Positions 1-26,041 of a stretch of 64,000 nt of DNA are shown here, in pieces. The stretch lies in the UHGV virus genome UHGV-1373362, one strand, 5' to 3'. The DNA is from a virus. Position 1 is the first letter of the stretch; each line of letters opens with the position of its first letter. Both the position numbers and the translations under genes were made by a program. The notes under the pieces were generated by a model. It made no database searches and had not been told where the DNA came from. It saw only the letters and a list, made by a program, of their open reading frames with translations.

Positions 1-2
1 AC

Positions 3-374
3 GATGCAGAGTATACTAAGCTACTAGAACAATATGGGGATGATCCTGTTAAACTGGGTAATGCTTTAAAGGCTTTAAGAGCTAAGTCTACACAGGAAAT
101 GTTAGACTATAAAAAAAGCTTATTTGGAAACGATTGGTTCTTTGGTAGAACACCTCAGGTAGGATCTACTATTACCTTTGCTGAAAAGGGTAGTAAGCTT
201 ACATATGCAGAGAGAGCTAAACTTCAAAGTTCTAGGGATTTCAACAAGAGCCTATTGGAAAATAATAAACAGTTTCATAAGGACATAATGAAGTCCAAAG
301 AAGAAAACAATAAGATGATTCAGAATATGTCTGCTATAACAGCAGCATTAATCAAACGAGGAATGGGCCTATGA
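3..374 (+). CDS. hypothetical protein, 5'-partial (reading frame is open from the window edge into the ORF-track ORF 99..374)
   Basis: Frame 3 translated from nt 3 (DAEYTKLLEQYGDDPVKLGNALKALRAKSTQEM...) has no stop before the annotated ATG at 99. Ends ATGA-overlapping the next gene (371). Confidence 0.5.
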   Translation, partial: DAEYTKLLEQYGDDPVKLGNALKALRAKSTQEMLDYKKSLFGNDWFFGRTPQVGSTITFAEKGSKLTYAERAKLQSSRDFNKSLLENNKQFHKDIMKSKEENNKMIQNMSAITAALIKRGMGL

Positions 375-2224
375 AATTGATAGAGAAGCTACAACAAGGT
401 GGGGGAATCCCCGCCTTTGTCAGCTTTACAAATGTGCCTCAACCACAACCTGCTGCACCATATACAACTCAGCAGAACACTAAGTCTACAGAGACTAATG
501 ATGGTGGAATTGGATTACTCGACAAGAATATGGTTAAGTTCTTATATGAGAATGGCATTCCTAGTGATGTTGAGGCATTTATAGATAAATCAGGTATATT
601 CTCCAATGAAACATTTAGCAATCCATTCAGGAAGGATAGTTCATTAATACAGTATAAAACTATATTAAGAATGCTTCCCAGAATCAAGGCAGAAAGTGAG
701 CGATTTAAAAACGCCATGTCTGCTGCCGAAAAAAATGATGGTCTAAATGAAGTAGCTGTTACTGATGGGGGGTATGTAATTACTATGGATTCCCAAGGCA
801 ATATGAGTAAGAAAGCTATGGGGGATGTCGATTTAGAGAGTGAACAGATTCTAACCAATTCAGAATTGGCTAACTATAGAGCCAATAATATAGGTGCAGC
901 ATTTAATACTGATATAACTAGTATTATATCTAATGGAGTTGGAGTGTCTAAGATAACTGACTTTATTAGAAATATAACTGATAAATTGGGCACTAGTTCT
1001 AGTACTAGAGAGGGATATGTAAGTCAGCAAGCTGGAAGGGTCTTAAAAGGTTTAGAATATTTAAAATCATTGAATCCCAATGCCAATGATCTAGCTGGGA
1101 TGTCACTAGATGGGGTCTATAAAACAAGTGGGATGGACAAGAATCAAATTACCCAGGCTAATGCAGCTATAAATTACATTATGAATACCATGCCCAAAAA
1201 TATGAGAACAGTTTTGCAAGCCAAGGCTGCCTATATGTTGGGAGACAATTCTGCCCAAGGAGTAAAGAAATTGGTAAGTATGCTAACTTCTTCTGCACTA
1301 AAGGGAGAACATTCATTTACTTTGGACTATAAAGAGAGTCTAAATCCAGATGGGACCAAAAAATCAGAAAAGTCTAGTAAAGATGATAAAGTTATTGGGC
1401 CAGCAGAAGGATTTATACTAGGATATGGTGATAAACAGGTATATAGGATTAATAATGGAACATCATATGATCTAAACGTTTATGGAAACAGAGGGATAAT
1501 AACAACTGAATCTGGTAGACCACTAGGTAATGCAACATTAGCTGACGTATCAAATAAGAGCACATTTGCTGGATCTTTAGACTTGGAAAATGCCACTATG
1601 GGCAATCAGCCTATTGATTTTAGTACAGCTGATAGAATAGCTATCTATGGTTCTAAAATTGTTGGCGCAGATCTACCATTAGATTTAGAAGCTAAGGCTA
1701 AAGGTATTATTAAACCTGATTTAGACTCTCTAAGAAGAATGGAAGCTGCTGATGAGGAAATTAGAGCTAAGGGCTTAACTGCCCCAGAAGATAAAAATAG
1801 GGTCTATGCTGCACACCAATTGCCATTTAAATTTGACCAGAATGGCAACGTTAATCTGGAATATTACGCTAGATTTGGAATATTGGATGCCTATGCTGAT
1901 GAATCTGCCTTTAAGGAGGATGTTACGTTTGATGATTCACTGTCTACAGTGGGGGATGAAAATGAAAGGAGAGGTATAGAGCGTATTCTAAAGGCAGCAG
2001 ATAAGGATTATAAGATGTCTGAGGGATTATTTGGAGGCACTACCGTTTATAAAGGATCTGTGTACGTTCCAATAAATAGTAACATACTTAATAGTTCTTG
2101 GGGTGCAGGACATAATCCAACAGTACAAGGTAATGATGCTAAACTATTAGAAGCCAAAGAACAACTTCTACAAAAGGAGAGAAATTATCAAAGACCAGCT
2201 CCTTTGTCTAGCTATATAAATTAA
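371..2224 (+). CDS. hypothetical 617-aa protein, first complete gene of the RNAP-containing operon (possible virion/cargo protein)
   Basis: Long ATG-initiated ORF. ATGA overlap with the upstream gene and a 9-nt gap to the next. No recognisable motif. Confidence 0.6.
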   Translation: MKLIEKLQQGGGIPAFVSFTNVPQPQPAAPYTTQQNTKSTETNDGGIGLLDKNMVKFLYENGIPSDVEAFIDKSGIFSNETFSNPFRKDSSLIQYKTILRMLPRIKAESERFKNAMSAAEKNDGLNEVAVTDGGYVITMDSQGNMSKKAMGDVDLESEQILTNSELANYRANNIGAAFNTDITSIISNGVGVSKITDFIRNITDKLGTSSSTREGYVSQQAGRVLKGLEYLKSLNPNANDLAGMSLDGVYKTSGMDKNQITQANAAINYIMNTMPKNMRTVLQAKAAYMLGDNSAQGVKKLVSMLTSSALKGEHSFTLDYKESLNPDGTKKSEKSSKDDKVIGPAEGFILGYGDKQVYRINNGTSYDLNVYGNRGIITTESGRPLGNATLADVSNKSTFAGSLDLENATMGNQPIDFSTADRIAIYGSKIVGADLPLDLEAKAKGIIKPDLDSLRRMEAADEEIRAKGLTAPEDKNRVYAAHQLPFKFDQNGNVNLEYYARFGILDAYADESAFKEDVTFDDSLSTVGDENERRGIERILKAADKDYKMSEGLFGGTTVYKGSVYVPINSNILNSSWGAGHNPTVQGNDAKLLEAKEQLLQKERNYQRPAPLSSYIN

Positions 2225-2233
2225 ATATAATAT

Positions 2234-5200
2234 ATGAAGAACAATACCAAGGAGAACGACTTGTTCCTAAATATTGCAGCTAATCCTACATTCTCAATTA
2301 CAAATTTTAGAGATGTAGGGTTAAATGCAAGCAATACGTCACTTGCAGATGAAAATACTTACAAAAATATTCCTCAAATACAGGAGAATCCATTATTTCA
2401 AACAGATGGTAAGTTCGATGAGGCTAAGTTCAGTGATGCCTATCAAGCAGCTGCTATTGCTTATAATCATCTAGCTGATGAGACGTATCAGGAAGATATA
2501 ATTAAACAAGCTACTTTTCATAGGGATGATATATTTGCTGAACCAGAGCAAAGACGTCAAGGGCCAGAAGTGTCCCTTACTAGAACACCTAACCCTCTAA
2601 GACAAAAGAAAGGAATTAGAAGGATAAATCTCCTTGATGAGCCTACTCAATCTATTGATGAGATTGCACAAACTCAAAAGGTATGGGATGGTGCCACTCA
2701 AACATGGCATGATTCACCTAATGATTCATTTTGGACAGACTTTTGGGATACCAGAGTTATGGCCCAGTGGGATTTTGATGCAGATGAACAAGGAAGGCCT
2801 ACTACTGATAAGGATAAGATAGTTTATAGAAAGGGAGACTTAAAGCTAAATGAGAATGGTACATACTACTATGAAAACCTTAACGGAAGGGAAGTGTATG
2901 GTAGAAGAGTATTATCCAAGTTAAATACCTTGACCACTGATGGTTCAGCATGGAATAAATACGATTTTTTTGATTCTGATGATCTAGAAAAAAGTGTTGG
3001 GGGCACTTTCATGAAGAATGTTGCCATGATTGCTCCTATGTTTATTCCATATGTTGGTGCTTGGTATGTTGGTGCAGGTATTGCTACCGAAGTGGCTAAG
3101 GTAGGATCAGTCCTTGGTAAAATGTTCTTAGGTAGTGATAATCAATTTTTATCAGCAGTAGAGGGATTTACTCAATCATTAGAACCAACCTCTTCCCAGT
3201 ATACACAAGACCATGCTTGGAGTATAGAGAACTTACTAAACCTTACAGGGGATGTATTTAAACAATTGTATGAACAAAGGTGGTTATTCAAGTATGCTCC
3301 AGCTATACTGAAAGGTAATTTAGGAATGTCTGAGGATTTACAAAAAGCTAAACAAGCTGAATGGGTTTCAGAATATATGAAAACTAAAATTCTCGATATA
3401 AATAAAATACCATCTATAAAACCTGATGATGTAGCTAGAGCTACTAAGGAACTACAAGCTGTTAGTACTCTTAGGGCCCAAACTAGGCTAGAAGATTACA
3501 TGAAGGAGTACAATAAAGTAGGGGAGCTAATCTCTAAGGCATATATGACTGGTATAACAGTTCAAAGTGCTTATGGGGAAGCTAAACAACAAGGTGCTTC
3601 TGATATGGAAGCTGCATTACTTACTTTAGGATATGCTGCCGGTGAGTATGCCATTATAAATAGTAATTTAGGAAAGTGGATACTTCCTGAGTTGAGAATG
3701 GAGAAGGAGCAATGGAAACAAATTGCTAAAACCTTAACCCAAGCTGGTCAAAAACCTCTGCAAAACAGCCCAAAAGAACAGAAAGTTCAATTTATGAAAA
3801 AATTGTTCCAGATGGGTAAGGACATTGCACAGGCTAATTATTCAGTTGGAAAAACCACACTGAAAGCTACAGGTGCTAATGCTATTGGTGAGGGTGTGGA
3901 AGAGGTTTCAGAAGAGTTATTATATGACCTTGCTAAATCTGTATCTAACTTAGGGAGCTGGCTATCTGGAAGTGATACTAGGCTAACAGCTTGGGATGAT
4001 ATGACTAACCGATATGGTCTATCCTTCGTAGGGGGTGTGATTGGTGGAGGTGTGTTTGATATAGCATCGGATGTTAAGAGTGCCCGTAACATGAAGGATC
4101 TAAAATATAATGATGCTTATCAACAATTAGTATACATGGCACGTAATGGTAAGATGAATGATTTCTTAAATACAGTCAACAAGATGTCTTTAGGAAATAA
4201 GTATTTATCTGCCACTAAGCAAATTACTACAGCCGATGGGGAAGTTATATGGCAACAAGGTACTGAGACTGATAATCAGGATCTCGCAGCTAAAACTATG
4301 CTTAACCAACAAGCTAAAATGATTAATGATATTTTAGCAGCAAACTCAGCCAATATTAGTGATGATAGTTTTTTAGAGATACAAACTCTAAAAGATCTAA
4401 GGTTTTCCCAATTATCTAATAGTTCAGTTGCAGGTAGGTACTTGCAGGACTACAACAGTATATGTACTGATATTATTGATCTTACTAATCAGCTAAATAA
4501 TCTGAATAGTACTGCATCAAAGATGGAAAAGGGAGTTACAGATCAGAATGAGAGGGATAATGGAGAGGATTTATCTACTCAAACTGAGAGGAGCAACCTT
4601 CAGGCTAAACTTAAAGAGGCTATAGAAAAGAAGGATTCTTACATTAATGGTGATAGAGCACCAGAATATGTAAAGGAGTCTATATTTGAAATGTCTCCAG
4701 CTTTAAACTCTCCGTTTGTATCTTCCACATTAATTAGATATATAGAGTCTCAAAGTGGTAAGAGGGTTGATGAGTGTAGTAAAGCAGAAATAGCTAAATA
4801 TAAATTAGAGTATGAGAGTCTAAACAAAACTGATAGAAGGGATAGGATACACCAGGCATTCATGATATTTAATACAATGAATGAGCAAACTTCTCCCATG
4901 TTTGCAGATCATAGTATGAGATACTATGAATCAACAGACGATGTACTTAATGAGCATATAAACATTCTACATAAGTCTATAAACGAGACACTAGAAAGAC
5001 TTGGATCTATATCTGACTCTGAAAAATTTCAGGATGCAGCTGGTAATTATTTAAGGGAGAAATCGTCCTCTATAACCTTAACATTGGTCAAAACCTTAGG
5101 TGACCAGTCTGATGTTGATTCTTGGGATCGACTTATAAGTGAACCCATAGATGAGGATTATAGTGAAGCTGATAGGAATAGAGATGCTTCTAAATTCCTA

Positions 5201-8200
5201 AGTAATTTCATATATACTAAAATAAATGACATTGTTTCCCCTATAATTTCTAGGGGCTATGTTAATCCAGAAGTAAGACAGACTCTTCTAGATACAATAC
5301 AAGCTGCTGAGAATTACTTCTATATGGCAGAAAACGAAGCTTCATCCTCTGGTGCTGATACTGCAACATATGAGCTTGCTATAGATGCTCTTACTAAAGC
5401 ATCGAGCCAATTAAAGAAGTTGCCACACTCTCCAATTACAGAGGTGTTGGATAGTTTCGCATTAAGTATTACTGACAATGGTATAAAGTTTTCTAAACTA
5501 CTGCAAGATTTAGATGAACAACTTCTCAATGCACAAGAGGATCTATCCACATTTGATATAGATAATCAGGTTGGGGCACAGATTGATGAAGCTTTACATA
5601 TCTTACAAGCAGCTAAAAGTATTGTTCTAGCAACTAGAACTGACTCTACAACAATAGACAATTTATTTGGATACAATTCTACTGTAAATAGTCTAAAGCC
5701 GGAAGTACAAGTAGCTGAGATACAAGCCCCTATAGCTGATTCTATGATACAAGATCTGGAAATCTTGGAGAACAAGCTAAAATTCTTCCAAAGGCTTACA
5801 GATGCTAACAACGAGCAAAAGTTAAATGAGCAGTCTAAGACAGCAACTAATAAAGATTATATTACATATAGAAAATTAGTGCAGCTTGCAGATGCAATCC
5901 CAAGTAATTGGAAGGGTTCAGCAGAGTTTAAACTAGCTATAGATAGTCTTACTAATATAAAAGAGTTATCTAACATCAATAAACTTAATCTCACTAATGA
6001 TGAAAAGATATTAGTTGAGAAGGATAGAATTGCTGCTGAAGATGCTATATATACCTTGTTCGAAGCTAATCCTGATAAAGTATCCGACCCAGTAGAATTA
6101 TCTAAGTTTATCAATACTAAGAATTTTAACATTTACAACAACAATGAAGATGTTCTAGATTCCTCGTCTAAAAACATAGATGATAATTCATTTGTATGGT
6201 ATTTGGCTTCTAGGGCAGCTATTAGATCTACAGATTTCTATAATGAGTTTAAACAAATTATTAGGGATAATATTGCCCCACTTCCAACACAGGAGTTAGC
6301 TGTATACCTAGGATATGCATCTATTGCAAATGGCTCAATTATTGATTCTTTTGTAGATGCTATTAATGAATCTATAAAGAATGACTGGAAGACTTTATCC
6401 GATTCGGAGAAGAATGAAATAAATAAGAGAGTAAAACCAGCTATATATTGGGATTATCCATTGGATTCTTCTGTAGCTCCTAGATTTTCTAGGGTTACAT
6501 TTGTAGAAGGCATTCCTGGAAGTGGTAAGACTAGTGCAGTATTTGATACTATAGTTACTTTACTAAGAAAATTTCATCCAAGCATCTTAAACAATACATG
6601 GGTTGGCCATGCTACTACTAAAAGTGCTGAAGGGTTAGCTAATAGCCTAAACCTAGAGGGGGCTTCTAAGTTAGACAAGAAAGGTCTTATGAAGAAGATT
6701 TCTCCTAATTGGCATGAATCATTAGATGCTAACGGTAATGTAGATATTAATGATGATATGTATATTATGGATGATGAGGGGATATTAAGGTCAGCATTTG
6801 GAATAAATGAGGTTGATTCATCTTCTCTCCCATCTATTATATTTATAGATGAAGTTTCAAGGTATACTACATTTGATCTTGACTTAATTGAGAGGTTTGC
6901 TAAAAAATACGGCGTTCCAGTTATAGTGGCTGGGGACTTCGATCAAACTAGAGCCATAGGAGTACATAAGATACCTATAAACGGAAAAGAGGTTACTAAC
7001 TATGTACAGCTGTTTAGAAATAACTTCGTAAGAACTCCTAAGTTGGGGGTATCCATGAGAGCTAACAACTCTCAAAAAGTATTCAACATGAAGCTTATAA
7101 GATCTAGTCTGAGTGACTTGAGAAACAATAATTTCTCTGACGTTCTGACATTGCATTACTTCCAAGATGGGACTGGTTTATATGGTGATAAGGTATATGA
7201 TTCATACAACTATGACCAGAGCTTAGTCTCCAAAGATATAGATCTTATGATTAGTACCTTAAAAGAAGGTCAGAAAATCGGATTTATATACACTGATGTA
7301 AACACAGACATCTATAAACTACTTAGCACTGCAACATATAAGGATTATATAGACTGGCATGAGGGTACTTCTGCACAAGGGTTAGAGAATCAATATTATA
7401 TTATTGATGATTCTGATGCACAACCTGAACAGTACTGGAGTGATTTATATACTGGAATTAGTAGAGCTATGCAGGGTAGCATTATCATGCATACTAAGGA
7501 TTATAATGCTATGACTACATATTTTGAATCAGTCGCTGATACTATGACTAACGTAAGCCAGTTACCAGAAAAAAGTATTAAGGATTTCTCCCAGACTAGG
7601 AAAAAGCTATTAGAACAAGTAGTACCATCTGGAAATCCTATTAAAATTGTTCCCAGGAAAAAGGATAGTGCTATAGTAGCTATACCTCCAGTTAATCCAG
7701 AAGGAGGTCTAGAATCTACAGTGGTTGAAACCATAGATGATTCTGGAAATCCAACTACTGAAATTGTAACTAATGATGGACTTCCATCAGAGGAGGATTT
7801 GAAGAAAAAGACACTAGCCTCTAGTGAAGACCCAGAACATCCTGCAAAGGAAGTAATAGATTCCGATCCAGACTTAACTAAACCACTAGACCAATTGAAT
7901 ATGATTCTTCATACATTCAATACATTTGAATCTGGATGGGTTAAGGATCAGAATGGTGTCTTACGTCCTGGAGAGGATGCTGATTCGAGAATAGACAGCT
8001 TTAATGGTCTAAGCAAATTGAGTAGCCTTCCAAGCAGTATGCACAATGTAAACAGTTACACTGACTTAATTGGCCAACTAAGAAGCACTGTATTTAATAA
8101 TAAAGATAAGGCCGAGTTGGTCTCTAAGGTTAAATCAATTCTTAACTTAAACTCACAAGTTTATGCTACGTTTGCATTTAAGAGTTCTGCTGGAGTAACT

Positions 8201-10279
8201 ACCAATCAAAATTACGGAAAGTTCGGCAAGAATCCTTCAGAAGAGATTGATTTTGTATATGCACATGATCTTAGAACAAAAGAGGCTAGGAGAAAGGCCC
8301 TAGTATTAATAGTTGGGGAGTCAATAAATGGTAAAAATAACGATTTGTTAGAAATTCCATTAGCTACATTAACTTCTCCTTTGACCATGTTAAATCTTAA
8401 GGTCTTTTCAGGCATAAAAGACATATACAATGATATTAATATATCACACTCCGATAAAAGTACTCATTTTAGGCTTGGAGAGTTAAGAAAGAGGCTTTCA
8501 GGAAGTAATGCATACGGTAAGGATGTTTTTATCAAATTGTTAGACCTGTGGAATTTTACTCAAAATGGGATATTCTTTATCAATGATCCCACTTGGACAT
8601 TGGCTCAGAATTTCAAGTCTTCTGGTCCTACTATGGTAAATAAAATTAAAGGCTACGACTACGAGGTAGAAGGATTTGCGTATGATGCTGACTGGATTAG
8701 TTTAGAGGAGATGGGTGAGAACCCAGGAAGAAACATATCCAGTATCATGGTATCTCCACGTGGTACATATACTTATGGAGATTCCAAAGTTGTACAAGCA
8801 GCTGAACCTGGCCAACCATTTGTATTAATTACCGATGACATTTCACTTAGCGGTGATAGGCTAAGGGATTATTATTTAAACCAATTGGTTGATCCTAATT
8901 TGGAAAAGAAAGTGAAGTTGGTATATGTTATTCCTCCTAAAGCATCTTTCAAGTCTTATTTTGACAACCTGAAGGCTATCATTACCAAAGATGGAACTCC
9001 CAAGAATATAGGTAATAACCTTACCGCATTTAGGATGTTAGATATCCTAATGAGGCAACCAGGCTTTAAGACTTCTGAGTTAAATTATATAGACTCCGCA
9101 TATGATGGTATATTAGAAGTAGTAAACAAACTAGCAGGAATGAATACCATAAAGGACAGGCTAGCTTACTTAAAAACTTCTGTTAATATACAGGGCTTAA
9201 ACTCTAATATTAGTGTACAACAGGCCTTACAAAATTATCTACTTAGAATGGTATATCCTGGTAAGGCTGGAGGAGGTGTAGTATTTAAGCCAGAACTTCT
9301 AGCTAAGATAGAGGACATCATGAAGGCAAATAGAATTGATGGTATATTCTACGATGTTAAGTATGATAGAAACTCTAAAGGTGTAACTATGGTTGATGCT
9401 CAGGTTACTTCAAAATACACTATCGATGGTATTCCGTTCATGATAAACGGTAAGGTAGACTCTACTTCATTTTTTGGAAATGTATTACCTATGGTAGAAT
9501 CCACCCTTAATAAAATAAAGAAAAGTGGGAACTCTATTTCGTCTATAGATAATGCTAAGTATTTAGCTGGGGATTCCAATATCAATATTCCAACTAAGAG
9601 TCCTATCCAACAATTTATTGAGAACTTTGGTATAGAGATGGATGCTTCTGTACGTAAAGAAATAGAGGATAGATTCAAGGGAAGTGCTGGATACACCACA
9701 GATGAAATTTGGCAGTATTTAAAAGATACTGGGCATTTATCCTTAAAAATTGGAGGGAGAACATATATAAGTCAAAAAACATCCCAGTTTGAAGGGCTAT
9801 CTCCTACTGGAATTAATATGGTTCCAAAGACTAACAATATATATTCAGTTGACATGTCTATAGGAGAGGATTCCTACACAGGTGAGTTCAACTTAGCAGA
9901 TAGGGTATTGTTATTGGTTAAAGTTACTAATGAACCTACTACCCAAACACCTGCTGCTGAAGGAGTATTTGCAATAGAAACTAGGGATGAGTTGAGTACA
10001 TTCATACAGTCTCTCAAACCTATTACATTTGCCAATGCAAATTACAACAATTTAAAGAATGCAACAACAGTTGAGGAATTTAATACTAAAGTAAATGCGC
10101 TTCCTATTACACCAAAACTACTTAGTAAAATAGTAGACAAAGTTAATGACTTTGGGGATGGGCCTAATAAGGAAGCATTACAGAACTTAATAGATTTCTT
10201 AACAACTAAACTAAATATGAAGAAGTTCGTTCAGCAAACTGAACAATCTTGTCCAATAACAATTAAAGTTAAATTCTAA
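2234..10279 (+). CDS. giant 2681-aa protein with an embedded complete SF1 (RecD/Pif1/Dda-like) helicase core
   Basis: Uninterrupted 8-kb ORF. Internal motifs read directly from the translation: GIPGSGKTS (Walker A / motif I), IIFIDEVS (motif II), VIVAGDFDQ (motif III, GDxxQ), WHEGTSAQGLE (motif V-like), YTGISRAMQGSII (motif VI-like). Confidence 0.8.
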   Translation: MKNNTKENDLFLNIAANPTFSITNFRDVGLNASNTSLADENTYKNIPQIQENPLFQTDGKFDEAKFSDAYQAAAIAYNHLADETYQEDIIKQATFHRDDIFAEPEQRRQGPEVSLTRTPNPLRQKKGIRRINLLDEPTQSIDEIAQTQKVWDGATQTWHDSPNDSFWTDFWDTRVMAQWDFDADEQGRPTTDKDKIVYRKGDLKLNENGTYYYENLNGREVYGRRVLSKLNTLTTDGSAWNKYDFFDSDDLEKSVGGTFMKNVAMIAPMFIPYVGAWYVGAGIATEVAKVGSVLGKMFLGSDNQFLSAVEGFTQSLEPTSSQYTQDHAWSIENLLNLTGDVFKQLYEQRWLFKYAPAILKGNLGMSEDLQKAKQAEWVSEYMKTKILDINKIPSIKPDDVARATKELQAVSTLRAQTRLEDYMKEYNKVGELISKAYMTGITVQSAYGEAKQQGASDMEAALLTLGYAAGEYAIINSNLGKWILPELRMEKEQWKQIAKTLTQAGQKPLQNSPKEQKVQFMKKLFQMGKDIAQANYSVGKTTLKATGANAIGEGVEEVSEELLYDLAKSVSNLGSWLSGSDTRLTAWDDMTNRYGLSFVGGVIGGGVFDIASDVKSARNMKDLKYNDAYQQLVYMARNGKMNDFLNTVNKMSLGNKYLSATKQITTADGEVIWQQGTETDNQDLAAKTMLNQQAKMINDILAANSANISDDSFLEIQTLKDLRFSQLSNSSVAGRYLQDYNSICTDIIDLTNQLNNLNSTASKMEKGVTDQNERDNGEDLSTQTERSNLQAKLKEAIEKKDSYINGDRAPEYVKESIFEMSPALNSPFVSSTLIRYIESQSGKRVDECSKAEIAKYKLEYESLNKTDRRDRIHQAFMIFNTMNEQTSPMFADHSMRYYESTDDVLNEHINILHKSINETLERLGSISDSEKFQDAAGNYLREKSSSITLTLVKTLGDQSDVDSWDRLISEPIDEDYSEADRNRDASKFLSNFIYTKINDIVSPIISRGYVNPEVRQTLLDTIQAAENYFYMAENEASSSGADTATYELAIDALTKASSQLKKLPHSPITEVLDSFALSITDNGIKFSKLLQDLDEQLLNAQEDLSTFDIDNQVGAQIDEALHILQAAKSIVLATRTDSTTIDNLFGYNSTVNSLKPEVQVAEIQAPIADSMIQDLEILENKLKFFQRLTDANNEQKLNEQSKTATNKDYITYRKLVQLADAIPSNWKGSAEFKLAIDSLTNIKELSNINKLNLTNDEKILVEKDRIAAEDAIYTLFEANPDKVSDPVELSKFINTKNFNIYNNNEDVLDSSSKNIDDNSFVWYLASRAAIRSTDFYNEFKQIIRDNIAPLPTQELAVYLGYASIANGSIIDSFVDAINESIKNDWKTLSDSEKNEINKRVKPAIYWDYPLDSSVAPRFSRVTFVEGIPGSGKTSAVFDTIVTLLRKFHPSILNNTWVGHATTKSAEGLANSLNLEGASKLDKKGLMKKISPNWHESLDANGNVDINDDMYIMDDEGILRSAFGINEVDSSSLPSIIFIDEVSRYTTFDLDLIERFAKKYGVPVIVAGDFDQTRAIGVHKIPINGKEVTNYVQLFRNNFVRTPKLGVSMRANNSQKVFNMKLIRSSLSDLRNNNFSDVLTLHYFQDGTGLYGDKVYDSYNYDQSLVSKDIDLMISTLKEGQKIGFIYTDVNTDIYKLLSTATYKDYIDWHEGTSAQGLENQYYIIDDSDAQPEQYWSDLYTGISRAMQGSIIMHTKDYNAMTTYFESVADTMTNVSQLPEKSIKDFSQTRKKLLEQVVPSGNPIKIVPRKKDSAIVAIPPVNPEGGLESTVVETIDDSGNPTTEIVTNDGLPSEEDLKKKTLASSEDPEHPAKEVIDSDPDLTKPLDQLNMILHTFNTFESGWVKDQNGVLRPGEDADSRIDSFNGLSKLSSLPSSMHNVNSYTDLIGQLRSTVFNNKDKAELVSKVKSILNLNSQVYATFAFKSSAGVTTNQNYGKFGKNPSEEIDFVYAHDLRTKEARRKALVLIVGESINGKNNDLLEIPLATLTSPLTMLNLKVFSGIKDIYNDINISHSDKSTHFRLGELRKRLSGSNAYGKDVFIKLLDLWNFTQNGIFFINDPTWTLAQNFKSSGPTMVNKIKGYDYEVEGFAYDADWISLEEMGENPGRNISSIMVSPRGTYTYGDSKVVQAAEPGQPFVLITDDISLSGDRLRDYYLNQLVDPNLEKKVKLVYVIPPKASFKSYFDNLKAIITKDGTPKNIGNNLTAFRMLDILMRQPGFKTSELNYIDSAYDGILEVVNKLAGMNTIKDRLAYLKTSVNIQGLNSNISVQQALQNYLLRMVYPGKAGGGVVFKPELLAKIEDIMKANRIDGIFYDVKYDRNSKGVTMVDAQVTSKYTIDGIPFMINGKVDSTSFFGNVLPMVESTLNKIKKSGNSISSIDNAKYLAGDSNINIPTKSPIQQFIENFGIEMDASVRKEIEDRFKGSAGYTTDEIWQYLKDTGHLSLKIGGRTYISQKTSQFEGLSPTGINMVPKTNNIYSVDMSIGEDSYTGEFNLADRVLLLVKVTNEPTTQTPAAEGVFAIETRDELSTFIQSLKPITFANANYNNLKNATTVEEFNTKVNALPITPKLLSKIVDKVNDFGDGPNKEALQNLIDFLTTKLNMKKFVQQTEQSCPITIKVKF
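6500..7500 (+). other. SF1 helicase-like P-loop NTPase core (motifs I, II, III, V, VI) inside the 2681-aa ORF, roughly aa 1425-1755
   Basis: Walker A at about 6508-6537, DE-box at about 6838-6861, GDFDQ at about 6931-6950, YTGISRAMQ at about 7443-7480. Spacing between motifs is typical of SF1 helicases. Confidence 0.65.
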
Positions 10280-10284
10280 TTAAA

Positions 10285-13200
10285 ATGGAAAAATGTATTT
10301 TTAACAAGGGTGATGGGAACCTAGATCTTCTTGATCACCTTGTAGATGTTTGTGAGGATTTATCAGAAGTAGAAGACTTGACTGAGAGGAAATCTCTGTT
10401 TATAGGTAATCTAAAAGAACTGGGGGAAGGATTCACTGAATCCTCCCATCCAGCTCTTGCGGAATTTATAAAAGAGTACATTGACTCTAATTATCCTGAC
10501 CTATCTGATATAGTTCCTGTGAATGCCGACATATATTTATCCGGCAAAACTAGTAATATTGATGAGACTTTACAAGAATCTGAGGCTAAAACTAATACAC
10601 TAGAAATGCCAGATGACGTTGGAGATAATCCACGTGGTAATTTCATATCTAAATCATATGGAACTGCTACTGAGGTTCAAACGGCTATGGAAGCTAGCTT
10701 CAGAAGAAATGTTGTAAACTCATTTATAGTTAATAGGGATAAGGGCACTGTCATAAGTGACACAACTACTCTAAATGGAGAAGTTAGAGAATATCAAGAA
10801 CAACTATTACAAAACATAGTAACTTATTTAAAGGACAGGTATCAGAATGTGCAATCAAGTAAATATGATACAGATTCTATACTCAACACATTAAATACTT
10901 TATCTATGTATAAGGATGGGAGATACACTGGTGCGGTAGAAACAGTAAATGGTATTGCAGATCCGTTCTTTAGTAAACAGACCTCCAATTCATTAAATGA
11001 ATATTATTCCAATGCGCTAGCTAGACATATTCCATCTAAAAAGTTTATTGATGCCTATAACAGTTATGTTATCCTTAACAACTTTGATCCACTGCTTAGA
11101 CTAACATTAGGTAAAGTCCTAGAAATTAATCCAGAAACTAATGGTAAGTTCGTAGCAGATTCTAACAAGTATTCTCTAAATGGTAAGAATAATCTTCCTA
11201 CCAGTTGGAGGACTACTGAGGACATCTTTCCTGAAAGGGAAATTAGTAATATAGACAGGTTGCTGGTTGAAACCACACCAATGTACTTATGGCAAGGTGA
11301 GGCCCCAATGAGTAATAGATCATTAGGATTACAGGAATTCAATTATATAGTATGTAAAGTAAAAGATTTAGTAACTAATTCTTATGCAAGAGATATTGTA
11401 TTTGATGGTCAGTTCTTTAATGACTATCCTGAATTAGCTAAACACAGATCTAGGATATATGGTAAGACACTCTACGAACTAATAGCATTAGTGAGAGAAC
11501 ATCCTGAAACCAATCTTAGTACTATATTTAGCATATTATGTGATCCTAAATTCTTCTCATCACAATCCACGACTTTACTTAGGGAATTCTATCGTCCTGA
11601 TATGGATATTATGTATTCCCTATATAAAGGAATGTTTGAAGATTCTCCCAATTCATTGTTTGGAATTAAAAAGAGGAATCCTGGTCAAACTAACTATTAT
11701 TCATATATTACCCAAACTGCTAATTCTATAGCTAACATTAGTTATGCTCAGTATAGACAGGATGAGTATGGTAATATAGTTATGAGAACTCTTAAGGACT
11801 CTTCCTTGAATCTTACTAAACTAAGGATCGAGAACAAAATTAACGGTATGTTAAGTAAGGTGGCACCTATCAAATATGATGATCTAGTAACTAAGTACAA
11901 TGCCAGTTATGAGGATGGTATATTCAAATTTACCATTCCAAACGCTGATATAATTGTAGAGTTTAAACCCTCATCTGATAGGAATACTGCTTTCACTCTT
12001 ACTAGGAAAGTGATGGAAAATGGTCAGGAAAGCTTCTCTAACGTTCAGTACTTTGAAGGTAGAGACGATTGGAATAAGCTTCTTGGATTCTTTAATGACT
12101 TCCTAAAGCTTGATTTTGCTCCTGACTCTACCTATATGTCTAACTATCTGTCCTTGAAAAGCGAGGGTGAGAATGTCCAGTATGATCTAGCAATCAATGA
12201 CTTGCTCCAGTTCTCTACTAGTGTATTCTTCAATTCCTACTTATCTCATAAACTTACATATCCAGAGATGAGTTGGACAAAGCTCGATGATCTACTTGCC
12301 AATACATATGATGATAAGAATAGACCTAACATAATCAAGTCTTCAGGAGAAATAAGTTTAATCTCCCGTTCTTATACACCAGTGTTAAATGATTTAGCTA
12401 ATGCTAATAGTATGACTACTGGAATGTTTGCTAGTAGTATTGTGAGGGATGCTGAAGGTAATGGCTTAGGATCAACATCAATTACCCGTATGTTTGATTC
12501 TACTCATACTCAGTGGGCTGCTCAATGCCTTAGAAATCCGAGGTCTGCTAGTCGAGGATTTAGTTTATTGAACAACCCTAAGATGTTGAGAGGTGTTATT
12601 ACTTCCAGAGAATATAAAGGAAGAGATAGCGCCAAGAGACATACTCAATTTAATGTTGCTGAGTCTTACTTCTCCTCATTAGTTTATGACTATGTAGGGG
12701 GATTAGTAGCACATGAAGGAAATGATCCAAGGGCTGGTGTTTCTGGCTTCATGCCTTCAGTAAATTCAGATAAGACAACTATCCTGAAGATGCTGATTAA
12801 CATGAACGACATAAGTGCTGCCAAAAAGACTTATGCCCAACTTAGTAAGGAGGAAATTAGGAGTATTATTAATTCAGAAATTGGAACATGTTATACCAGA
12901 ATCATGGATAATATATTACAGGATTTTGCAGAGTTAGCAAACTTTGCTAAAAGTACTGGAAATAACATTATTCTTAATCCATTAACTAATTTTTCTGAAT
13001 TTAATGCATTGTATGGAAAGGATGCAGCCAATCAATTAGCTATTCTTACTAAAGCATATAACAGTACTCACAGAGTCCCACTAGAATTTATAGATCAAGT
13101 TCATTTTATTAATAATAAGGGAAAGCTTGCATTTAATAGATCTTTAGTGTCTCTTACTAACAGATTCAGTCCTGGATATTTCTCTTCCAAGAACTTCGAC

Positions 13201-16200
13201 CCAACTCCAGTATTTGGGAGATTAACTACGGCCAACGAGTTTTGGAATCTTAAGGAGAGGGAACTACTATCCCAAGCTTTAGATAACAACTTTGTAATTG
13301 AAACTACCAATAGTAGAGGTCGCACGTTAAACTCTCCTGAAATCCAGCACTTTGCAAAAATGGGTTCCTGGATTGATCCAAATACTAAAAGGGTTATACT
13401 TGCAAAGTTTACTCCTAGTGGTGGAGGCGCAACGGTAAACATCTCTAAGTGGTCGGATTTTGGCGATCTTGGATATACTGAGCAAGATTCTTTCGGAAGA
13501 ACTGTTAGACGTACATATTTGTCTGATGGATTCGATATATCTAAGTTGAAAGGTAAGTTGGAGTTACACCCGACAATGGCTAATCATAATGCTCTTGATT
13601 ATTTATTTACTCAAGAATATATGTTATCTACTGTAGGTACTCATATCTCTCACCCAGCTAAAAAGGCAGCTAATGATGTATTTGACTTGGTCGAAGAGGC
13701 TGCAAGGTATGTAGCTCAACACAAGAGAAATGTGTCTTTTACAGCTAGTATGCATGTATTTCAACAGGATACTTTGACTGGCATTCCATCTGTCTATAGA
13801 ATGGCTGTTATCGATGATCTAAAGGCAGTAGTATTTAATGTAATGGGTGATTTCGATAAGGGGGGTGCTAAACCATATGATGGTGCAACTTTTGTTAATC
13901 CATTCGTTGTATACTTGGAGAATAATTCTCTAGGTGGATCTAAGGCTGGCATAGATAAGAAGCAATTCATTCACTCCTACAAGGAAAACACTTGTACTGG
14001 TATTATTATCAAAACAGCTGGGTTTGGTCTAACTAATGATAGAATTAGAGAGTCTGCATTTTATCGTCTTATGATGAAAAAAATGACAGATCATGTCTGG
14101 ACAGACAATGTTGGTATACCGTTTGTTACAGACATTACTAAGGATTTCAGAGGTAACCCAATCCGATATGATGATATGTACTACAAGGATACTGACGGTA
14201 AGTTCTACATGATTAAGGTAGAAAGTGCTGAGGGTGGAAACAATTTCTATGCTGTTACTAAGTCAGAAGTTGATCCAAATGGTAATATTATTAGAGAACT
14301 CCCAGTAGAAATGACTGGCCCAGTAAACACTAATTATGCCCTTTGGAATATGTTTGGTGGTATGAACTCCATGGAATTAAAGGATGATGGGTTTGGTAAT
14401 AAAACTCTTCAACCGTCTGAAGTATCTATCACCAATGTAGTTAAGGCTATGAATAGTATAGGAATAGTTACTAATCCAGAAGGTATCGTAGATACTCAGG
14501 AGGACATCTATCAAGTTCTTAAACATTCCGACATCCATTATGTTCCTACTGCTGGTGCTGTTAAACAGGGTGCTGCCAATATTAATAGTTCTGCATTCTA
14601 TTCTAACACAGAGAATTACAACATAATGACGGTTAAATTAGATTTCGCTGGTATTCAGTTAGATGCTTCTCATGAGGCAGATGAGGCTAACCTATCTATC
14701 ATGACTCAGGTTATTTCTTCATTAGCCTCTAGAGGATACACAGCTGATATGGCCCAGGAAGTTTATGATGCACTAAGTGCATTAACTGAATATGGAATTA
14801 GAGATTACATTGATGGTTACTCTAAGTACTTAGAAACTGAAAACCCAGAAGAGTTCCAAAATGTAATTACTAAGACTATTGTTAAATCTCTGATGAATAG
14901 TACCTCAAGGGATGGGAGTATAGTTCAGGCTGTAGCTGAAACTCTTCTAGAGAAGGCTAGACAGGGGAAAGAGCTAAAGTTCAAGGATACTAAAGGAATA
15001 ATTCCCTATAGTGATCCTAGTGTATTTAATCAATTGGTTTCTACGATTAGTTCTTCCCTTACCAAAGCTGCAATTCGTGTCAAGTTTAATGGTACACTGT
15101 CTGTATTAAATCCGTCTCATGGTATCTGGAAATTGTATGGTGATAGAAAGTTGGGATCATTTAATAATTCCAAACAAATTGAAGCGTTACAGAAGATCTA
15201 TGATACTAGACCTTTAAAATCAGTGTCAGAGATTCAATTAGGTCGCACGTACAATGTAACTGTGGATGGTATCACTTTACCCAGATTCATAGAAACACCC
15301 CAACAGTATTGGGATCTGAAGGAAGAATTGGCTGGTAAAGAGGCTACAATCGTAGAGAACATTACCGTTGGTAGAGATTTAGCAACTTATAATGTTAGTT
15401 TCTCTGATATAGAGGGTACTAAGTATAATATGTGGGATCTGGATGAGGTTAAGAACGTCTATAACTTTAGGACTTTAGTTGATGCGGTTAAAAATGCGGA
15501 GGCAGAGGAACGTACTCTTATGCTTGCTAACCTAAGGGCATGGCTGAAAAGTAAGGGACTTAGCAGCAATGCTAAAGAAGCTTGGAAACAACTTCAAGAA
15601 GGTATGCAGCGCACTCTGGGAGCCATAGGTTCCAGTGCCTCTGGTGCGGTTGTAATCAACGGAGTGCCAGTACTAATAGACAAAAGCAGTGTAGATATTA
15701 GAGCATATGAAACTATTATGCCGAAAATCTATGCAACTAAGTTCGGACTGCTTGAAAATGATGATTTACAAACTATTAAGAATGATAGGTGGTTCTTCCT
15801 GAAAAGGATGCTAGCCAAGGATAGATGGAATAGTAAAGTGGATGATGCAGACTTCGATGTAGAATTAAAGAGGATTAATGGTAAACATACCTACCTAGTT
15901 AATAAGGGAACATTTAATAAACATCATCTAACTGAGAAAAATGTAAATAAGTTATGGGATGGAGATAAAGTATATAGAGTAAATGAAGAAGGTCAGAAGT
16001 TGTATAGGTTATCTTCAGATGAAGATCTAATCTTTACAGATATTGACGGGAATGAAGTTATCGTTACTGACAATATTGATTTCTACGTTGGTGCTTCCAA
16101 CTATCATACTCTTAGAATCTCTGATTCTGTAGCTAAAACTGAGCTATTGGCACATATTTGGACTAAGATAGAAGGGGCTACTAGTAAACCTGCTCAACGA

Positions 16201-19200
16201 TTTATAAAAAGAGTTAGTAATGGTAGTATAGCTCAAAATATTTTAGCTATGAATGAGACTTACAGAACTAGTATTGAAAGTCTAAGAACTAATCCTGACG
16301 TGAGCGTTAAGGATCCTAATTTAAGGGCTTTATATAATTCTAGTATGGAGATTCATTCCTCATTTATTAAATCCTTAGATGTGTTAGCCGCTCGTATTCC
16401 AGCTCAAACAATGCAATCATTCATGCCTATGAAAGTTGTTGCGTTTGACAATCCTGACGTAAATTCTGCCTACGTTAATTATTGGCAGATTTGGTTACAA
16501 GGTTCTGACTTCGATATTGATAAGGTTTCTCTGTTAGGATATTCATTTGACAGAACTGGTAAGTATGTTGGATGGAGTCCTTACTTTAACCTTAAAACAA
16601 TCAATAATTTGAAGGCATCTGAAATGCTGCCGTTCCCTACTGGCAAGAAAGTTGAGCTAGTTCCAACTAATGATGAAAGTTTAACTGGATGGTTCAATGA
16701 TTATGTTGGAGAGTCCAAATTGTTTAACTTTGTAAAAGGCAATAAGTTAAGTGTATCTATAAACAATGATGCTATACAAAAAGAAATAGCATTAGGAGAT
16801 TTAGCTAAGTTTTTAAGGTATATAAGGTCTAATGGACATAAGTTATTTGTTCCAGCAGAATCTTCCCTTGATTTTGAAGCTATCAAGAAGTTCGTTGATA
16901 CACATAACACGTACCTTCAAGATTTAAAGGATGATTCCGGTACTGACATGATTAGAAATTTTATTTCTACACACATGTACAAGATCAGTTCAGATCCTAT
17001 AAATCTTATTCAATCTCAATCACCTATTGACCTAGGAGATCCACAAACAGCAGCTGAAGGATCAACAGCAGGAAAGCTAGTTAAAACTTTTACTCCTGGT
17101 AATAATTTTAACAAGCACATTTCACTGTTTGAGAATATGGCTGGTAAGGAGGTAATTGGTATTACTGCTGCAGGTATGAAGATTTTCTTCGCACTTACCC
17201 AGTATTACAATACTACACTTAGAAGTAATGATCCATTAAAGCAATCATTATTACTATTTAATAAAACTATAGCTGGGCAAAATGTTCAATTACTAGCTAA
17301 TAGCTATACTAGTAACTTAAGTACAATAGCAGATCCTAGAGTTCTGGAAGCAATAAGTACAGTAGTTCAAGATAAAGATGCTGCATTAATACTGTCAGCT
17401 CTATTATCATGTGCAACTGATAATGCCAAAGAGCTAATTTTATCTAAGATTAATGCTGGTGCCGACATGGTTAGTTTGTACATTTATGGTATTGCAATCG
17501 GTATTGACTTTAATAAGATTGCAGACATTATGATGTCAAGAACGGCTAAGATTATTAGTAAGATTAAGAGTGGTAATGTATTTAATGATGATTCTGGAAT
17601 ACCGTTTTTAACTAGTGTATTCGATTACCTAGATAAAGGTCCTAGAGTTAGTGGATTAGATTATCGCTTTAAGAGCAGAATAGCACAGCTATTGGACTTA
17701 GAGAATGATGGTGACGGTGATGTTAGAGAAGCTCTAAATCGTAAGATGCATGATACTATAGGTACGGATTTTATGTTGAACAGTAAATTACAGTTTATTG
17801 AACAATTGAAGAAAGCCGCAGTGTCTATTGATTCTGACGAAGCTAGGATCAGTTCTTTCAAATTTATCGATAAGTTGGAAGAATTTGTATCTAGTTTACA
17901 GATAATTCAGAATGAAGGCCAAGGGGTGTATGATACAATCAAAGAATTGTATTTCGGAGGTTCTGAGTTAAGGAGGTTAGGTTCTATTTTGGGTCTAAAT
18001 CAACAATTAAGAACTAAAGTAGATAGAAAGCTAAGTTTCATACGGGATTTCGAAAATCTGTTTACCAGTAGGTTTGCCGAGTTTGATTCTGACGAGGGTA
18101 TTAGAAAGGCCCAGCTTATGCAACCATCTATAGTAAATGGTCAAACTACTACGATTGGGGATGCTTTTGATGCTTTAGCCAATTTTGTTAAGGATGATAA
18201 TCTTGATGAAGACGGTAATGTGATAGAAAGTAGAAAATACAGAATATCATTTACTAAATTTATCAACGATGAGGCTTATAGGGATACCATTATTAGTCTG
18301 TATAACGGAGTTAAGCATACCTTTAATATACTAGATGTAGTATGGTCACTACCTCATTTTAGAGGATATTTGAAAACAGCATTTATTGACTATGCTGCTC
18401 AAAGTGCAATATCATCTAAATTTAGAGCTATTGATCGTATAGGAAGTAGAGTTATTGATGCATATGGATTTAAGTCATCTGGGGATATTATGAATGTCTA
18501 TAGAGGCGTACAATCATTCCTAGATAACACATTGATTAACTCTTGGCTAAAAACTTCTAATAAGGTAATAAACATACCTAAAGGAGTTACTATATTTAGT
18601 ACTAGTGGTCATGAATTTACTACCGAAGTAGAAAGCACTCCTATATTGCTAGGTACAGAGTGGGGTAATGCATCTTTTAAACGTTGGATGGAATCAACCG
18701 TAATACCTGACCTTAAAGAGGGTATATTCGGAGAAGGTGACAAGTCATTTATGGATAATAAATTCATTTTGGATTTGTCCCCTATGATGTTTGATAAAAC
18801 TGTAACGAGAAATGCAACATTTGTATATACGTTGCCAGTAAGTATGATTCCTAAGTCTGATGCTGAGAAAGCTGCTTATGCAATGTATAAATCTGAGTTT
18901 AACAAATTACAATACAGAGGATATAGAGGGTATCCAATATCTGATTTATTCTTCTACTATAATTTGATAAACTTTAGAAATGTAACCACCCAAAACTCTC
19001 TGACTCCTATGTTCGAGGAGATTCTTAGGGATGGTTCATCTCCTTTATTGCAGAAATATAATGCATTCGTTTCAGAATTTGATACTGGATCTGACCTGTT
19101 AGAAGGCATTGATTACATAATGGAAGATGTTATCATGTGGTGTGCCCCATTTGTGGATACCTATCGTGCTACCACTCCTTATGTATATAGCTATGACTAT

Positions 19201-19699: not shown

Positions 19700-20782
19700 A
19701 TGGCAGTATGTCTTAATAAAAACACAGTAGAGTACCAGACACGATTAAAAATGTCTGGTCTCTCTGCGTTTAAATTTGATGCTTATGCATCTGATTTTGT
19801 AAGTAAGTTTGGAAGGTTCCCGGAGTTAGATGAACTTCCGGGAGCTAATTCCGAACCACATATTAGAAAAGCTTTAGATATAAAGGAACATCAGGGAGAA
19901 AATATAGTATCAAATGATAAGGTACTATCATACACCAATTCTGCAGAAATACCTGATGCTAATATAAAACTTAATAATGTCTTCAGAGACTTAGAGATAA
20001 AACTAACCCCTATTTTTAGTAAATCTGTAGTAACTATAAAACAGAGGCCTACTAAATGGAGAGGAGTGTATGAGGGAGGAATTGATGTTGATTCAGAAAT
20101 GAATAAACAGAGAAACATTGGGGTTATGAATAACATCATAGAAAGGCTAGCTACATTATATGGGATAAACTTCATTCCAATTAGTAATGCAGAATTAGGC
20201 ACTTCTAAATGGTCTGGTATAGTTGATGATGCTAAAACTACCAATGCATTTATATATAATGGTGATATTTACATTAACGTGGATAATGCTAGGATAGATT
20301 CTCCACTTCATGAAATGCTTCACCTTATATTAGGATCTATGAAATTCAGTGATCCTAAATTATATACTGACTTAGTGAGCAGTATGGAAGCTATACCAAA
20401 TTACAATAACAGAGCCATTACCTATAAGGATAGAACTAGGTCAGATATTAATGAGGAGTTGTTTGTGTCAGAATTCTCTAAATATCTAACTGGACAAAGT
20501 AACACAATAAAGGACTTAGACGGAAAAACGTTAAACAAGATATTTTATAACATGAGTAGAGTTTTGGATAGTGTACTATTTGGAAAACAGAGCGTTACTA
20601 CTATGGATTCAGTGGAACTATTCAACCATTCCTTAGTACAACTATCCGACTATCTTGGTTCGGAATTAACTAACAATGACTTTACTGGCACCTTAGATGT
20701 AAAATCAGCAGAAACTCACAGAATTTTAGCTAATGTGAAATCTGATTTAATGAAGTCTGGTAAACTTAAAGAATATTGCTAA
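19700..20782 (+). CDS. 360-aa protein with an HExxH...E zincin-like motif (putative Zn-metallopeptidase)
   Basis: HEMLH at nt 20309-20323, followed 22 residues later by a Glu (SSMEAIP), a gluzincin-like spacing. No other support. Confidence 0.45.
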   Translation: MAVCLNKNTVEYQTRLKMSGLSAFKFDAYASDFVSKFGRFPELDELPGANSEPHIRKALDIKEHQGENIVSNDKVLSYTNSAEIPDANIKLNNVFRDLEIKLTPIFSKSVVTIKQRPTKWRGVYEGGIDVDSEMNKQRNIGVMNNIIERLATLYGINFIPISNAELGTSKWSGIVDDAKTTNAFIYNGDIYINVDNARIDSPLHEMLHLILGSMKFSDPKLYTDLVSSMEAIPNYNNRAITYKDRTRSDINEELFVSEFSKYLTGQSNTIKDLDGKTLNKIFYNMSRVLDSVLFGKQSVTTMDSVELFNHSLVQLSDYLGSELTNNDFTGTLDVKSAETHRILANVKSDLMKSGKLKEYC

Positions 20783-25494: not shown

Positions 25495-26041
25495 TGCTAT
25501 GTTAATAGGAATTTCTGGTAAGAAACAATGTGGTAAGGATACCATATGTAAAATGATTAGAGCTTTGGACGATAGATGGGAAAAGCATGCATTTGCTGAT
25601 AAATTAAAACAGGCTTTGGCGGTAATACTTGATGTAAAGGTAGAAGCTTTTGAGGATAATATATTCAAGATGTCAGATAGTACTATTGCTAAACCAGAAG
25701 GGGGGTTCTATACATATAGAGAATTACTTCAAAAGTTTGGAACTGAGGTTGGGAGGAGCATAAGCCCTAATATATGGGTAGATGCTTTATTCTCCAACTA
25801 CTCCTTGGAGGATGATTTTTGGATTATAACTGATGTGAGATTCCCATCTGAGGCTGATGCTATTAGAGAACATGGTGGTGTATTAATAAGAGTAAACAGG
25901 AATACAGGTTACATAGACAACCATCCATCTGAAACTTCATTGGATAATTATCCAGACTTTGATTATATAATCAATAATGAAGATTTAGATGAAACTATAA
26001 AAGAGGTAGAATCAATAATGAAGGAAAATTACTTCATATAA
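25487..26041 (+). CDS. deoxynucleoside monophosphate kinase (phage T4 gene 1 family)
   Basis: N-terminal ML(I)GISGKKQCGKDT matches the T4 gp1 G-loop (SGVKRSGKDT). Colinear similarity continues through GTEVGRS, IWVDALF and WIITDVRF...REHGGVLIRVNR, matching T4 gp1 segments. The gene overlaps the upstream stop by 8 nt. Confidence 0.85.
   Translation: MISAMLIGISGKKQCGKDTICKMIRALDDRWEKHAFADKLKQALAVILDVKVEAFEDNIFKMSDSTIAKPEGGFYTYRELLQKFGTEVGRSISPNIWVDALFSNYSLEDDFWIITDVRFPSEADAIREHGGVLIRVNRNTGYIDNHPSETSLDNYPDFDYIINNEDLDETIKEVESIMKENYFI

Follow-up and report, generated by a model that had tools for sequence, protein, structure and literature searches.

The stretch of DNA analyzed here, 64,000 nucleotides (nt) of the virus genome UHGV-1373362 and referred to below as the window, belongs to a crAss-like phage, with matches to the Pfam families Crass_capsid, crAss_MUZ, CrAss_Ring_1, and CrAss_Ring_2. 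Its plus strand carries a giant open reading frame (ORF) of 2681 amino acids (aa) at positions 2234..10279, intact and starting with ATG. The middle of this protein contains a complete superfamily 1 (SF1) helicase core, and the next gene downstream encodes a putative crAss-type RNA polymerase. The original prediction, made from the letters of the sequence, had described the giant ORF with five SF1 motifs in it and suggested that the protein is virion cargo, possibly co-ejected with the polymerase. The ORF exists as described, and the five motifs are present in the expected order between nt 6509 and 7486.

The helicase core extends over aa 1395-1775 (6416..7558, plus strand) and comprises two RecA-like domains. 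Motif I (Walker A), GIPGSGKT, occupies 6509..6532 and motif II (Walker B), IIFIDEVS, 6836..6859. Motifs Ia, III, and IV follow one another across the first of the RecA-like domains and into the linker: a motif Ia-like segment, WVGHATTKSAEGLA, at 6599..6640 (it includes GHATTKSAEGL and is assigned from its pattern and its position relative to motif Ia of RecD/Dda), motif III, VIVAGDFDQ, with the GDxxQ signature at 6920..6946, and a motif IV-like segment, KLGVSMRANN, at 7040..7069. The second RecA-like domain carries motif V, WHEGTSAQGLE (QGxE, 7355..7387), and motif VI, YTGISRAMQGSII (7448..7486), with the arginine finger R1744. The positions of motifs I to VI were checked directly. Invariance was counted in a full-length alignment of 45 sequences, whose homologues are 26-63% identical to the query. 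The residues G1426, G1429, G1431, and K1432 of motif I, D1539 and E1540 of motif II, G1567, D1568, and Q1571 of motif III, R1609 of motif IV, G1716 of motif V, and T1740 and R1744 of motif VI are invariant, while K1603, G1605, and N1612 (motif IV) and Q1715 and E1718 (motif V) are nearly so. Within the helicase region, the invariant columns are precisely the catalytic ones.

Profile and fold searches lead to the same assignment. The excised domain passes the Pfam gathering scores of AAA_30 (28.3 versus 27 bits), one of the families against which the original prediction had proposed a search, and of AAA_19 (26.0 versus 25.1). Both families are matched by all 22 homologous domains tested (22/22, best 4.7e-10), which occasionally give weaker matches to UvrD-helicase, Viral_helicase1, UvrD_C_2, and the SLFN helicase family as well. 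A search of the PDB with the single sequence of aa 1301-1900 (phmmer) returned nothing useful. The family profile reaches motifs V-VI of coronavirus nsp13 at 3.3e-6, with SAQGLE...YTGISRA aligned. In the structure model the two RecA-like domains are accompanied by beta-hairpins following motifs III and IV, and the best Foldseek matches are nsp13 and Upf1-like proteins; nearly all of the top fold matches are SF1 helicases. A terminase, a kinase, or another non-helicase P-loop family, named at the outset as what the region might prove to be, was rejected, as the region aligns to SF1 helicase families in both profile and fold searches. We conclude that aa ~1395-1775 form a complete SF1 helicase core that most resembles the SF1B group (RecD2, Dda, nsp13/Upf1). 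Since all ATP-binding and coupling motifs are strictly conserved, we are nearly certain that the domain works as a nucleic-acid-dependent ATPase or translocase.

As an enzyme class this helicase core is real and ordinary. Relative to RecD2/Dda-type SF1B enzymes, with their AAA_30 and UvrD_C_2-type second domains, the sequence identity of the domain is only 12-15%. Motif III lacks the usual downstream L-PV, and the domain is never found alone but in the middle of giants of 2.6-3.6 thousand residues. The nidovirus nsp13 and Upf1 helicases, which give the best PDB profile and Foldseek matches, work physically coupled to the viral polymerase. However, they are RNA-acting enzymes of RNA viruses, and their zinc-binding domain and stalk are absent here, so that the likeness concerns the core motifs only. 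HelD, the SF1-like motor that recycles RNA polymerase in Gram-positive bacteria, is the sole NCBIfam match (19 bits against a cut-off of 419); it is matched at the level of the P-loop only, and the HelD-specific domains are absent.

The family to which the giant belongs is large. At 90% identity its homologues form more than 1323 clusters; the listed ones measure 1787-3116 aa, are nearly all full-length, and carry no other name than "hypothetical protein", so the family has been annotated by no source. An exhaustive search with a hidden Markov model (HMM) of the helicase profile, covering 1.84 billion representatives clustered at 50% identity, retrieved 492 proteins, 339 of them at E <= 1e-10. 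Among the best 150 of the 492, every full-length protein is a giant (2333-3638 aa) in which the domain lies around aa 1370-2390, and the short proteins among the matches are fragments. Because the full-length proteins in this set are all giants, this helicase lineage appears to exist essentially only as an internal module of such proteins. Comparison with the giant ORFs of other genomes, proposed in the original prediction as a check, places the helicase at a fixed position, about aa 1400-1950, in a diverse family of proteins of 2.5-3.6 thousand residues. Among GenBank phages, megablast found nothing, and tblastn found only MT835470 and MT835492, both unannotated, at ~27% identity.

Conservation varies strongly along the protein. 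The N-terminal module (aa 1-770, 2234..4543), in which long helices come after a small beta domain, is the best conserved region, with a mean identity of 46-47% and 27 invariant columns. It is followed by a variable linker (aa 771-1100, 4544..5533; 23%, no invariant column) and a conserved region preceding the helicase (aa 1101-1394, 5534..6415; 38%, 3 invariant columns), which matches nothing in Pfam or the PDB. The helicase core itself has a mean identity of 39% and 14 invariant columns. The C-terminal region (aa 1776-2681, 7559..10276) is moderately conserved in its middle part (aa 1901-2450; 31%, 1 invariant column) and poorly on either side (aa 1776-1900, 24%; aa 2451-2681, 17%; no invariant column in either). 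Outside the helicase the giant has no match in Pfam, PHROGs, NCBIfam, or PDB profiles, and the full-length family profile finds nothing in the PDB beyond the helicase region. PHROGs gave no match for the giant ORF or its neighbors. The protein contains no HExxH motif and, in Pfam and PDB profile searches, no nuclease motif. It has only 3 cysteines.

Conserved motifs of the N-terminal module include DFFDSD, GK...GSD, W.EN..NL.GD, YGEAK..GASD, GEG.EEVSEE, and RY..SFVGG..GG. The Kyte-Doolittle hydrophobicity of the giant peaks at aa 263-281 with a moderate value of 1.47, in a glycine-rich hydrophobic stretch (aa 254-300) that falls in the best-conserved part of the protein. This stretch belongs to a segment with EGF..S and W.EN..NL.GD motifs (aa 254-342, 2993..3259) that resembles the N-terminus of crAss001 gp47. 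An AlphaFold2 model of aa 130-770, with a pLDDT (predicted local distance difference test) of 70, consists of the small beta domain and the long helices. Foldseek found nothing better than E 0.3 for this model, and its matches were generic long-helix membrane proteins.

The helicase giant is part of a tightly packed plus-strand block, in which consecutive ORFs are separated by 4-9 nt or overlap in an operon-like manner. The window begins with the 3' end of a further large gene (1..370), matched in blastx by an upstream ORF of at least 1311 aa (50% identity) in a related contig, L005, and by a 1554-aa ORF of MT835470. It is followed by a 617-aa ORF (371..2224), a conserved partner of the giant in synteny with no family match. 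Downstream of the giant lie the polymerase ORF of 3136 aa (10285..19695), a 360-aa ORF (19700..20782) in which a motif search found a zincin-like HEMLH motif (SPLHEMLHLILGSMK, within nt 20300-20332), and a 1572-aa ORF (20776..25494) with a RecB-type PD-(D/E)XK nuclease domain (Pfam PF12705, 2e-8, over the cut-off). This domain covers aa 163-331 (nt ~21262-21768), with GVIDLL...VIDYKT within nt 21550-21669. A deoxynucleoside monophosphate kinase gene (25487-26041) is the last of the block. The order [~1000-1550 aa]-[~600-650 aa]-[helicase giant]-[polymerase] was found in all of the representative IMG/VR loci examined (9/9; 44 were fetched), and again in MT835470 and two metagenome contigs. An intact SF1 motor under strong purifying selection is permanently tied to the gene for the polymerase.

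The block is not part of any replication module and converges on a structural module on the minus strand; the guanine-cytosine skew reverses at ~26 kb. This module contains genes for a DUF192 protein (26094-26660), crAss_MUZ (27957-32657), Crass_capsid (41059-42480), and an N-acetylmuramoyl-L-alanine amidase (Amidase_3, 43700-44293). A second giant ORF on the minus strand, of 2584 aa (50445-58199), has an EndoS-type leucine-rich-repeat match, and the adjoining ORF of 1219 aa (58196-61855, minus strand) has metallophosphatase and lamin-tail-domain matches. Both probably serve as tail or host-interaction proteins and have no relation to the helicase giant. The 2584-aa ORF was considered as a paralogue and rejected, as blastp found no similarity; no paralogue of the giant is present in the window. 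No transfer RNA genes were found within the 64 kb.

The assignment of the 3136-aa ORF deserves a closer description. Its motif ARIPAQTMQSFMPMK...LQGSDFDIDKV, with DFDID within nt 16495-16527, is collinear with RVPTEDKYSMAPL...GSDFDVDKL of crAss001 gp50 and fits the beta-prime double-psi-barrel pattern. The spacing from R to DFD is 38 residues; the corresponding spacing in the beta-prime barrel of E. coli is 35. A homologue search retrieved just 13 fragments, and neither phmmer nor a profile of the ORF reached phi14:2 gp66 in the PDB. Since these PDB searches missed gp66, the RNA polymerase identity has the hallmark motif and synteny as its basis. According to the original prediction, the giant lies directly upstream of a virion RNA polymerase. 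The DFDID motif, the likeness to gp50, and the gene order agree with this, while the missed match to gp66 leaves the polymerase a putative one.

In MT835470 (L002 among our contigs), the polymerase gene is split inside the GSD(F/Y)D.D motif (…LQGSDY … GYDFD…) by an insert of ~1 kb at 35737-36798, which corresponds to nt ~16510 of the window. The insert encodes a LAGLIDADG-type homing endonuclease (LLLGDGTIS ... WYMDDGC) and is therefore presumably a group I intron. The copy in the window is uninterrupted at the catalytic motif. Yutin 2021 reports internal disruptions of the DxDxD motif of the Zeta-group RNAPB' and, in the legend of Fig. 3, names intron-encoded LAGLIDADG endonucleases among the features of the transcription block (PMC7886860).

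The phage, with a genome of ~186 kb, probably falls in or near the Zeta group, because the ~183-187 kb contigs of near-identical proteins, the human-gut origin, the mixed genetic codes, and the disruption of the polymerase motif match the Zeta group as Yutin 2021 describes it (PMC7886860). Lineages with the helicase giant are a mixture of standard-code and TAG-recoded phages. The window itself uses the standard code. In many relatives, among L004 and L029-L048, TAG is read as sense, and the helicase gene, with 46-103 in-frame TAGs, is intact only under that code; the neighboring genes are recoded too. Yutin 2021 reports that late genes are the only ones with such recoding (PMC7886860).

Whether the helicase giant is a virion protein can be approached through relatives with characterized virions. 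Mass spectrometry of crAss001 virions detected gp45 (C1), gp46 (C2), gp47, gp49, and gp50 (PMC10172136), and this set replaces the list gp36/gp45/gp57 given in the original prediction. Virions of phi14:2 contain the polymerase gp66 together with its neighbors gp65, which has a zincin domain, and gp67 (10.1101/2020.03.07.982082). The crAss001 protein gp47, an "RNA polymerase-associated" virion cargo of 262.5 kDa, is like the helicase giant a giant of this gene block. In hhalign, the N-terminal family of the helicase giant and a 20-sequence gp47 family were paired with a probability of 71% (E 3.7e-5, 81 columns), aligning aa 254-342 of the giant to aa 98-183 of gp47. The shared part comprises the hydrophobic segment and the EGW..S and W.EN..N.IGD motifs of gp47, and a relaxed alignment is collinear over ~490 columns, with the EG.EE and F(V/I)GG..G motifs paired. 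These alignments lend moderate support to homology between the N-terminal module and gp47, a proven virion protein. The flanks of the helicase had been called unrecognizable, which does not hold throughout, given this N-terminal likeness; the C-terminal aa 1776-2681 match nothing in Pfam, PHROGs, or the PDB. The same hhalign comparison with crAss001 gp45, gp49, and gp50 gave nothing, and the family HMM matched none of gp45-gp50.

The proteins gp45-gp50 of crAss001 all lack a Walker A motif (0 of these proteins), so the helicase is specific to the lineage described here. What gp47 has in its place is a PD-(D/E)XK-like motif (at aa 1776-1813, in alignment with the nuclease ORF of the window) and an HEAFH motif, which in the window reside in separate ORFs downstream of the polymerase. 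Because gp47 carries both motifs, its distal parts correspond to the window's nuclease and zincin ORFs. The 360-aa zincin-like ORF is, in addition, 30% identical to an 804-aa ORF of MT835470 carrying HEFAH (SLHEFAHLIMGSMK). It probably corresponds to the phi14:2 gp65 zincin domain, present here as a separate small gene. Since its motif also occurs in the virion protein gp47, the RecB-like nuclease appears to be a conserved, and probably ejected, component of crAss-like phages.

The block that contains the helicase giant thus also contains the DxDxD polymerase, a zincin, and a PD-(D/E)XK nuclease, and adjoins the structural module. The latter two domain types are also found in the virion proteins phi14:2 gp65 and crAss001 gp47 (10.1101/2020.03.07.982082; PMC10172136). 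Virion cargo is a plausible role for the helicase giant because of this synteny, the gp47-like N-terminal segment, and the late-gene type of recoding in relatives, and on balance we lean toward it. The suggestion that the ORF encodes a cargo protein is supported to this extent only, and two Pfam cargo families give no match, as discussed below.

No helicase is described for this block or for the virions of crass viruses in the literature compared, with the figures of Yutin 2021 outside that comparison, and Bayfield 2023 and a Crassvirales review leave helicases unmentioned. In Yutin 2021, an "SF1 helicase" is among the gene families of Fig. 1c and is listed with replication genes in the legend (PMC7886860). 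The SF1 helicase of p-crAssphage is a stand-alone protein. The helicase giant represents a new architecture among the crAss-like "RNA polymerase-associated" giants, and its context is unusual: the helicase occurs in giants only, is fixed beside a crAss-type polymerase, is fused to a gp47-like N-terminus, and is found in hundreds of divergent lineages. Between the window and MT835470, the capsid is 87% and the muzzle 48% identical, and identity is no more than 25-30% for the 617-aa ORF, helicase giant, polymerase, and zincin ORF. Either the cargo/transcription block evolves much faster than the capsid, or it was exchanged between lineages.

What the helicase may do in the cell is suggested by the properties of related polymerases. 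In vitro, phi14:2 gp66 efficiently transcribes single-stranded and denatured DNA; it does not transcribe double-stranded M13 DNA, and native phi14:2 genomic DNA is transcribed weakly (10.1101/2020.03.07.982082). The Neurospora enzyme QDE-1, which is related to the crAss-type polymerase and has two barrels itself, also prefers single-stranded DNA and requires the helicase QDE-3 and RPA (10.1101/2020.03.07.982082). QDE-3 is a RecQ helicase of superfamily 2, unrelated in sequence to the helicase of the giant, and the parallel would be a functional one only. Since gp66 prefers single-stranded or denatured DNA and QDE-1 needs QDE-3, opening of the template is the most economical role for the helicase. 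We propose that the giant would be synthesized late, incorporated into the virion, and co-ejected with the RNA polymerase, in the manner of crAss001 gp47. The helicase would then load on the entering phage DNA and unwind it at the expense of ATP, supplying a single-stranded template to the crAss-type two-barrel polymerase, so that it would act on DNA together with the polymerase. The conserved N-terminal module may serve in packaging, ejection, or membrane contact, and the C-terminal third may bind a partner or DNA. We regard this proposal of a late-made, packaged helicase that opens the template for a co-ejected polymerase as tentative, at not quite an even chance.

Several observations weigh against this proposal. 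The block lacks a helicase in phi14:2 and crAss001, the very lineages whose polymerases have been studied, and therefore the helicase is not generally required and cannot be a general answer to the template problem. SF1B enzymes load on a 5' single-stranded tail, and the origin of such a tail on ejected double-stranded DNA is puzzling. The similarity to gp47 is short (81 columns), confined to the N-terminal part, and moderately significant, and against the single gp47 sequence the hhalign probability drops to 23% (E 9e-4). The Pfam families crAss_CARG1 and crAss_CARGO2 match no ORF of the window. A separate caveat concerns the helicase match: with the whole protein, AAA_30 scores 23.5 bits (5.3e-5), below the cut-off of 27, and AAA_19 is likewise slightly under its cut-off. 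The identity of the RNA polymerase is itself putative, as it derives from the motif and synteny. Finally, in the relative L046 (13864-21195), the helicase gene contains 46 TAGs and the two genes upstream 16 and 28, while the polymerase gene downstream has none, so that the boundary of recoding runs exactly between the helicase and polymerase genes. It is possible that the two proteins are expressed at different times, or that the boundary reflects a recent recombination.

The alternatives differ mainly in where the helicase would act and with which partner. RecBCD/AddAB-type enzymes combine helicase and nuclease activities, and the same packed block encodes, on the same strand, a RecD-like SF1 helicase and a RecB-family nuclease (PF12705, 2e-8). 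An unpackaged, intracellular helicase might accordingly join this nuclease in a split RecBCD/AddAB- or Dna2-like machine, with possible roles in host-DNA degradation, recombination-dependent replication, or the processing of concatemers before packaging. We consider this rather unlikely. The nuclease is not part of the same polypeptide, as in the known machines, but of a different giant (ORF 20776-25494) two genes away, with the polymerase and zincin genes between them, and the nuclease itself is probably cargo, given that its motif is also present in the virion protein gp47 (PMC10172136). Moreover, the block is set apart from any replication module and converges on structural genes, and the helicase family is never stand-alone. 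A more distant prospect, which we judge improbable, is that the giant is the motor of an ejectosome, in which the hydrophobic N-terminus would be anchored at a membrane channel and the helicase would pull the ~186-kb genome into the cell. The conserved hydrophobic Gly-rich segment, the long-helical N-terminal model, and the proposed channel formers gp45 and gp46 of crAss001 (PMC10172136) are consistent with such a device, as is the restriction of the giant to long contigs, up to ~187 kb here (about twice the crAssphage genome) and 117-122 kb in the more distant GenBank relatives. However, SF1 helicases move along single strands, unlike the motors that package or take up duplex DNA, the hydrophobic segment is moderate (without a formal transmembrane helix prediction), and the fold search with the N-terminal model gave no significant match.

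An ejected helicase could also be directed against host defense, stripping or unwinding nucleic-acid-guided or DNA-bound defense complexes or protecting DNA ends. What speaks for such an effector is only that the giant lies among putative ejected proteins and that the block has diverged very fast from MT835470. Yet no likeness to known anti-defense proteins was seen, and an architecture and gene order kept strictly in at least 339 clusters look like those of a core rather than an accessory function, which makes this explanation more doubtful still. Least credible of all is a region that no longer works as a helicase, either a decayed P-loop relic retained for a structural role or a P-loop of the terminase or kinase type. 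The subthreshold whole-protein Pfam score might be taken in this sense, together with the presence of SRP54 (P-loop region only) and T4 gp17 among the weaker profile and fold matches. Against it, every catalytic motif, the arginine finger among them, is invariant, which in practice excludes an inactive relic; in the second RecA-like domain, motifs V-VI can be aligned with nsp13, and the top fold matches and the excised-domain Pfam scores point to SF1 helicases.

If the giant is indeed packaged and opens the template for the co-ejected polymerase, a bolder interpretation would follow, which we hold to be possible but on the whole unlikely. The giant would then be the first phage helicase to be packaged and delivered with a virion RNA polymerase, and would represent the missing template-opening factor. 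It would belong, along with the block's RecB-type nuclease and zincin protease, to an ejected kit for early transcription and the processing of DNA. Helicases carried inside poxvirus cores and the QDE-1/QDE-3 pair come closest as analogies.

These findings bear on the viruses most abundant in the human intestine, the crAss-like phages. The cargo/transcription block emerges as a site of domain shuffling, at which helicase, RecB-type nuclease, and zincin are distributed differently between lineages. The region of aa ~1390-1780 is a defined, excisable domain for biochemistry. The helicase giant is a testable candidate for the factor that may give the virion polymerase of such phages access to its template inside the cell.

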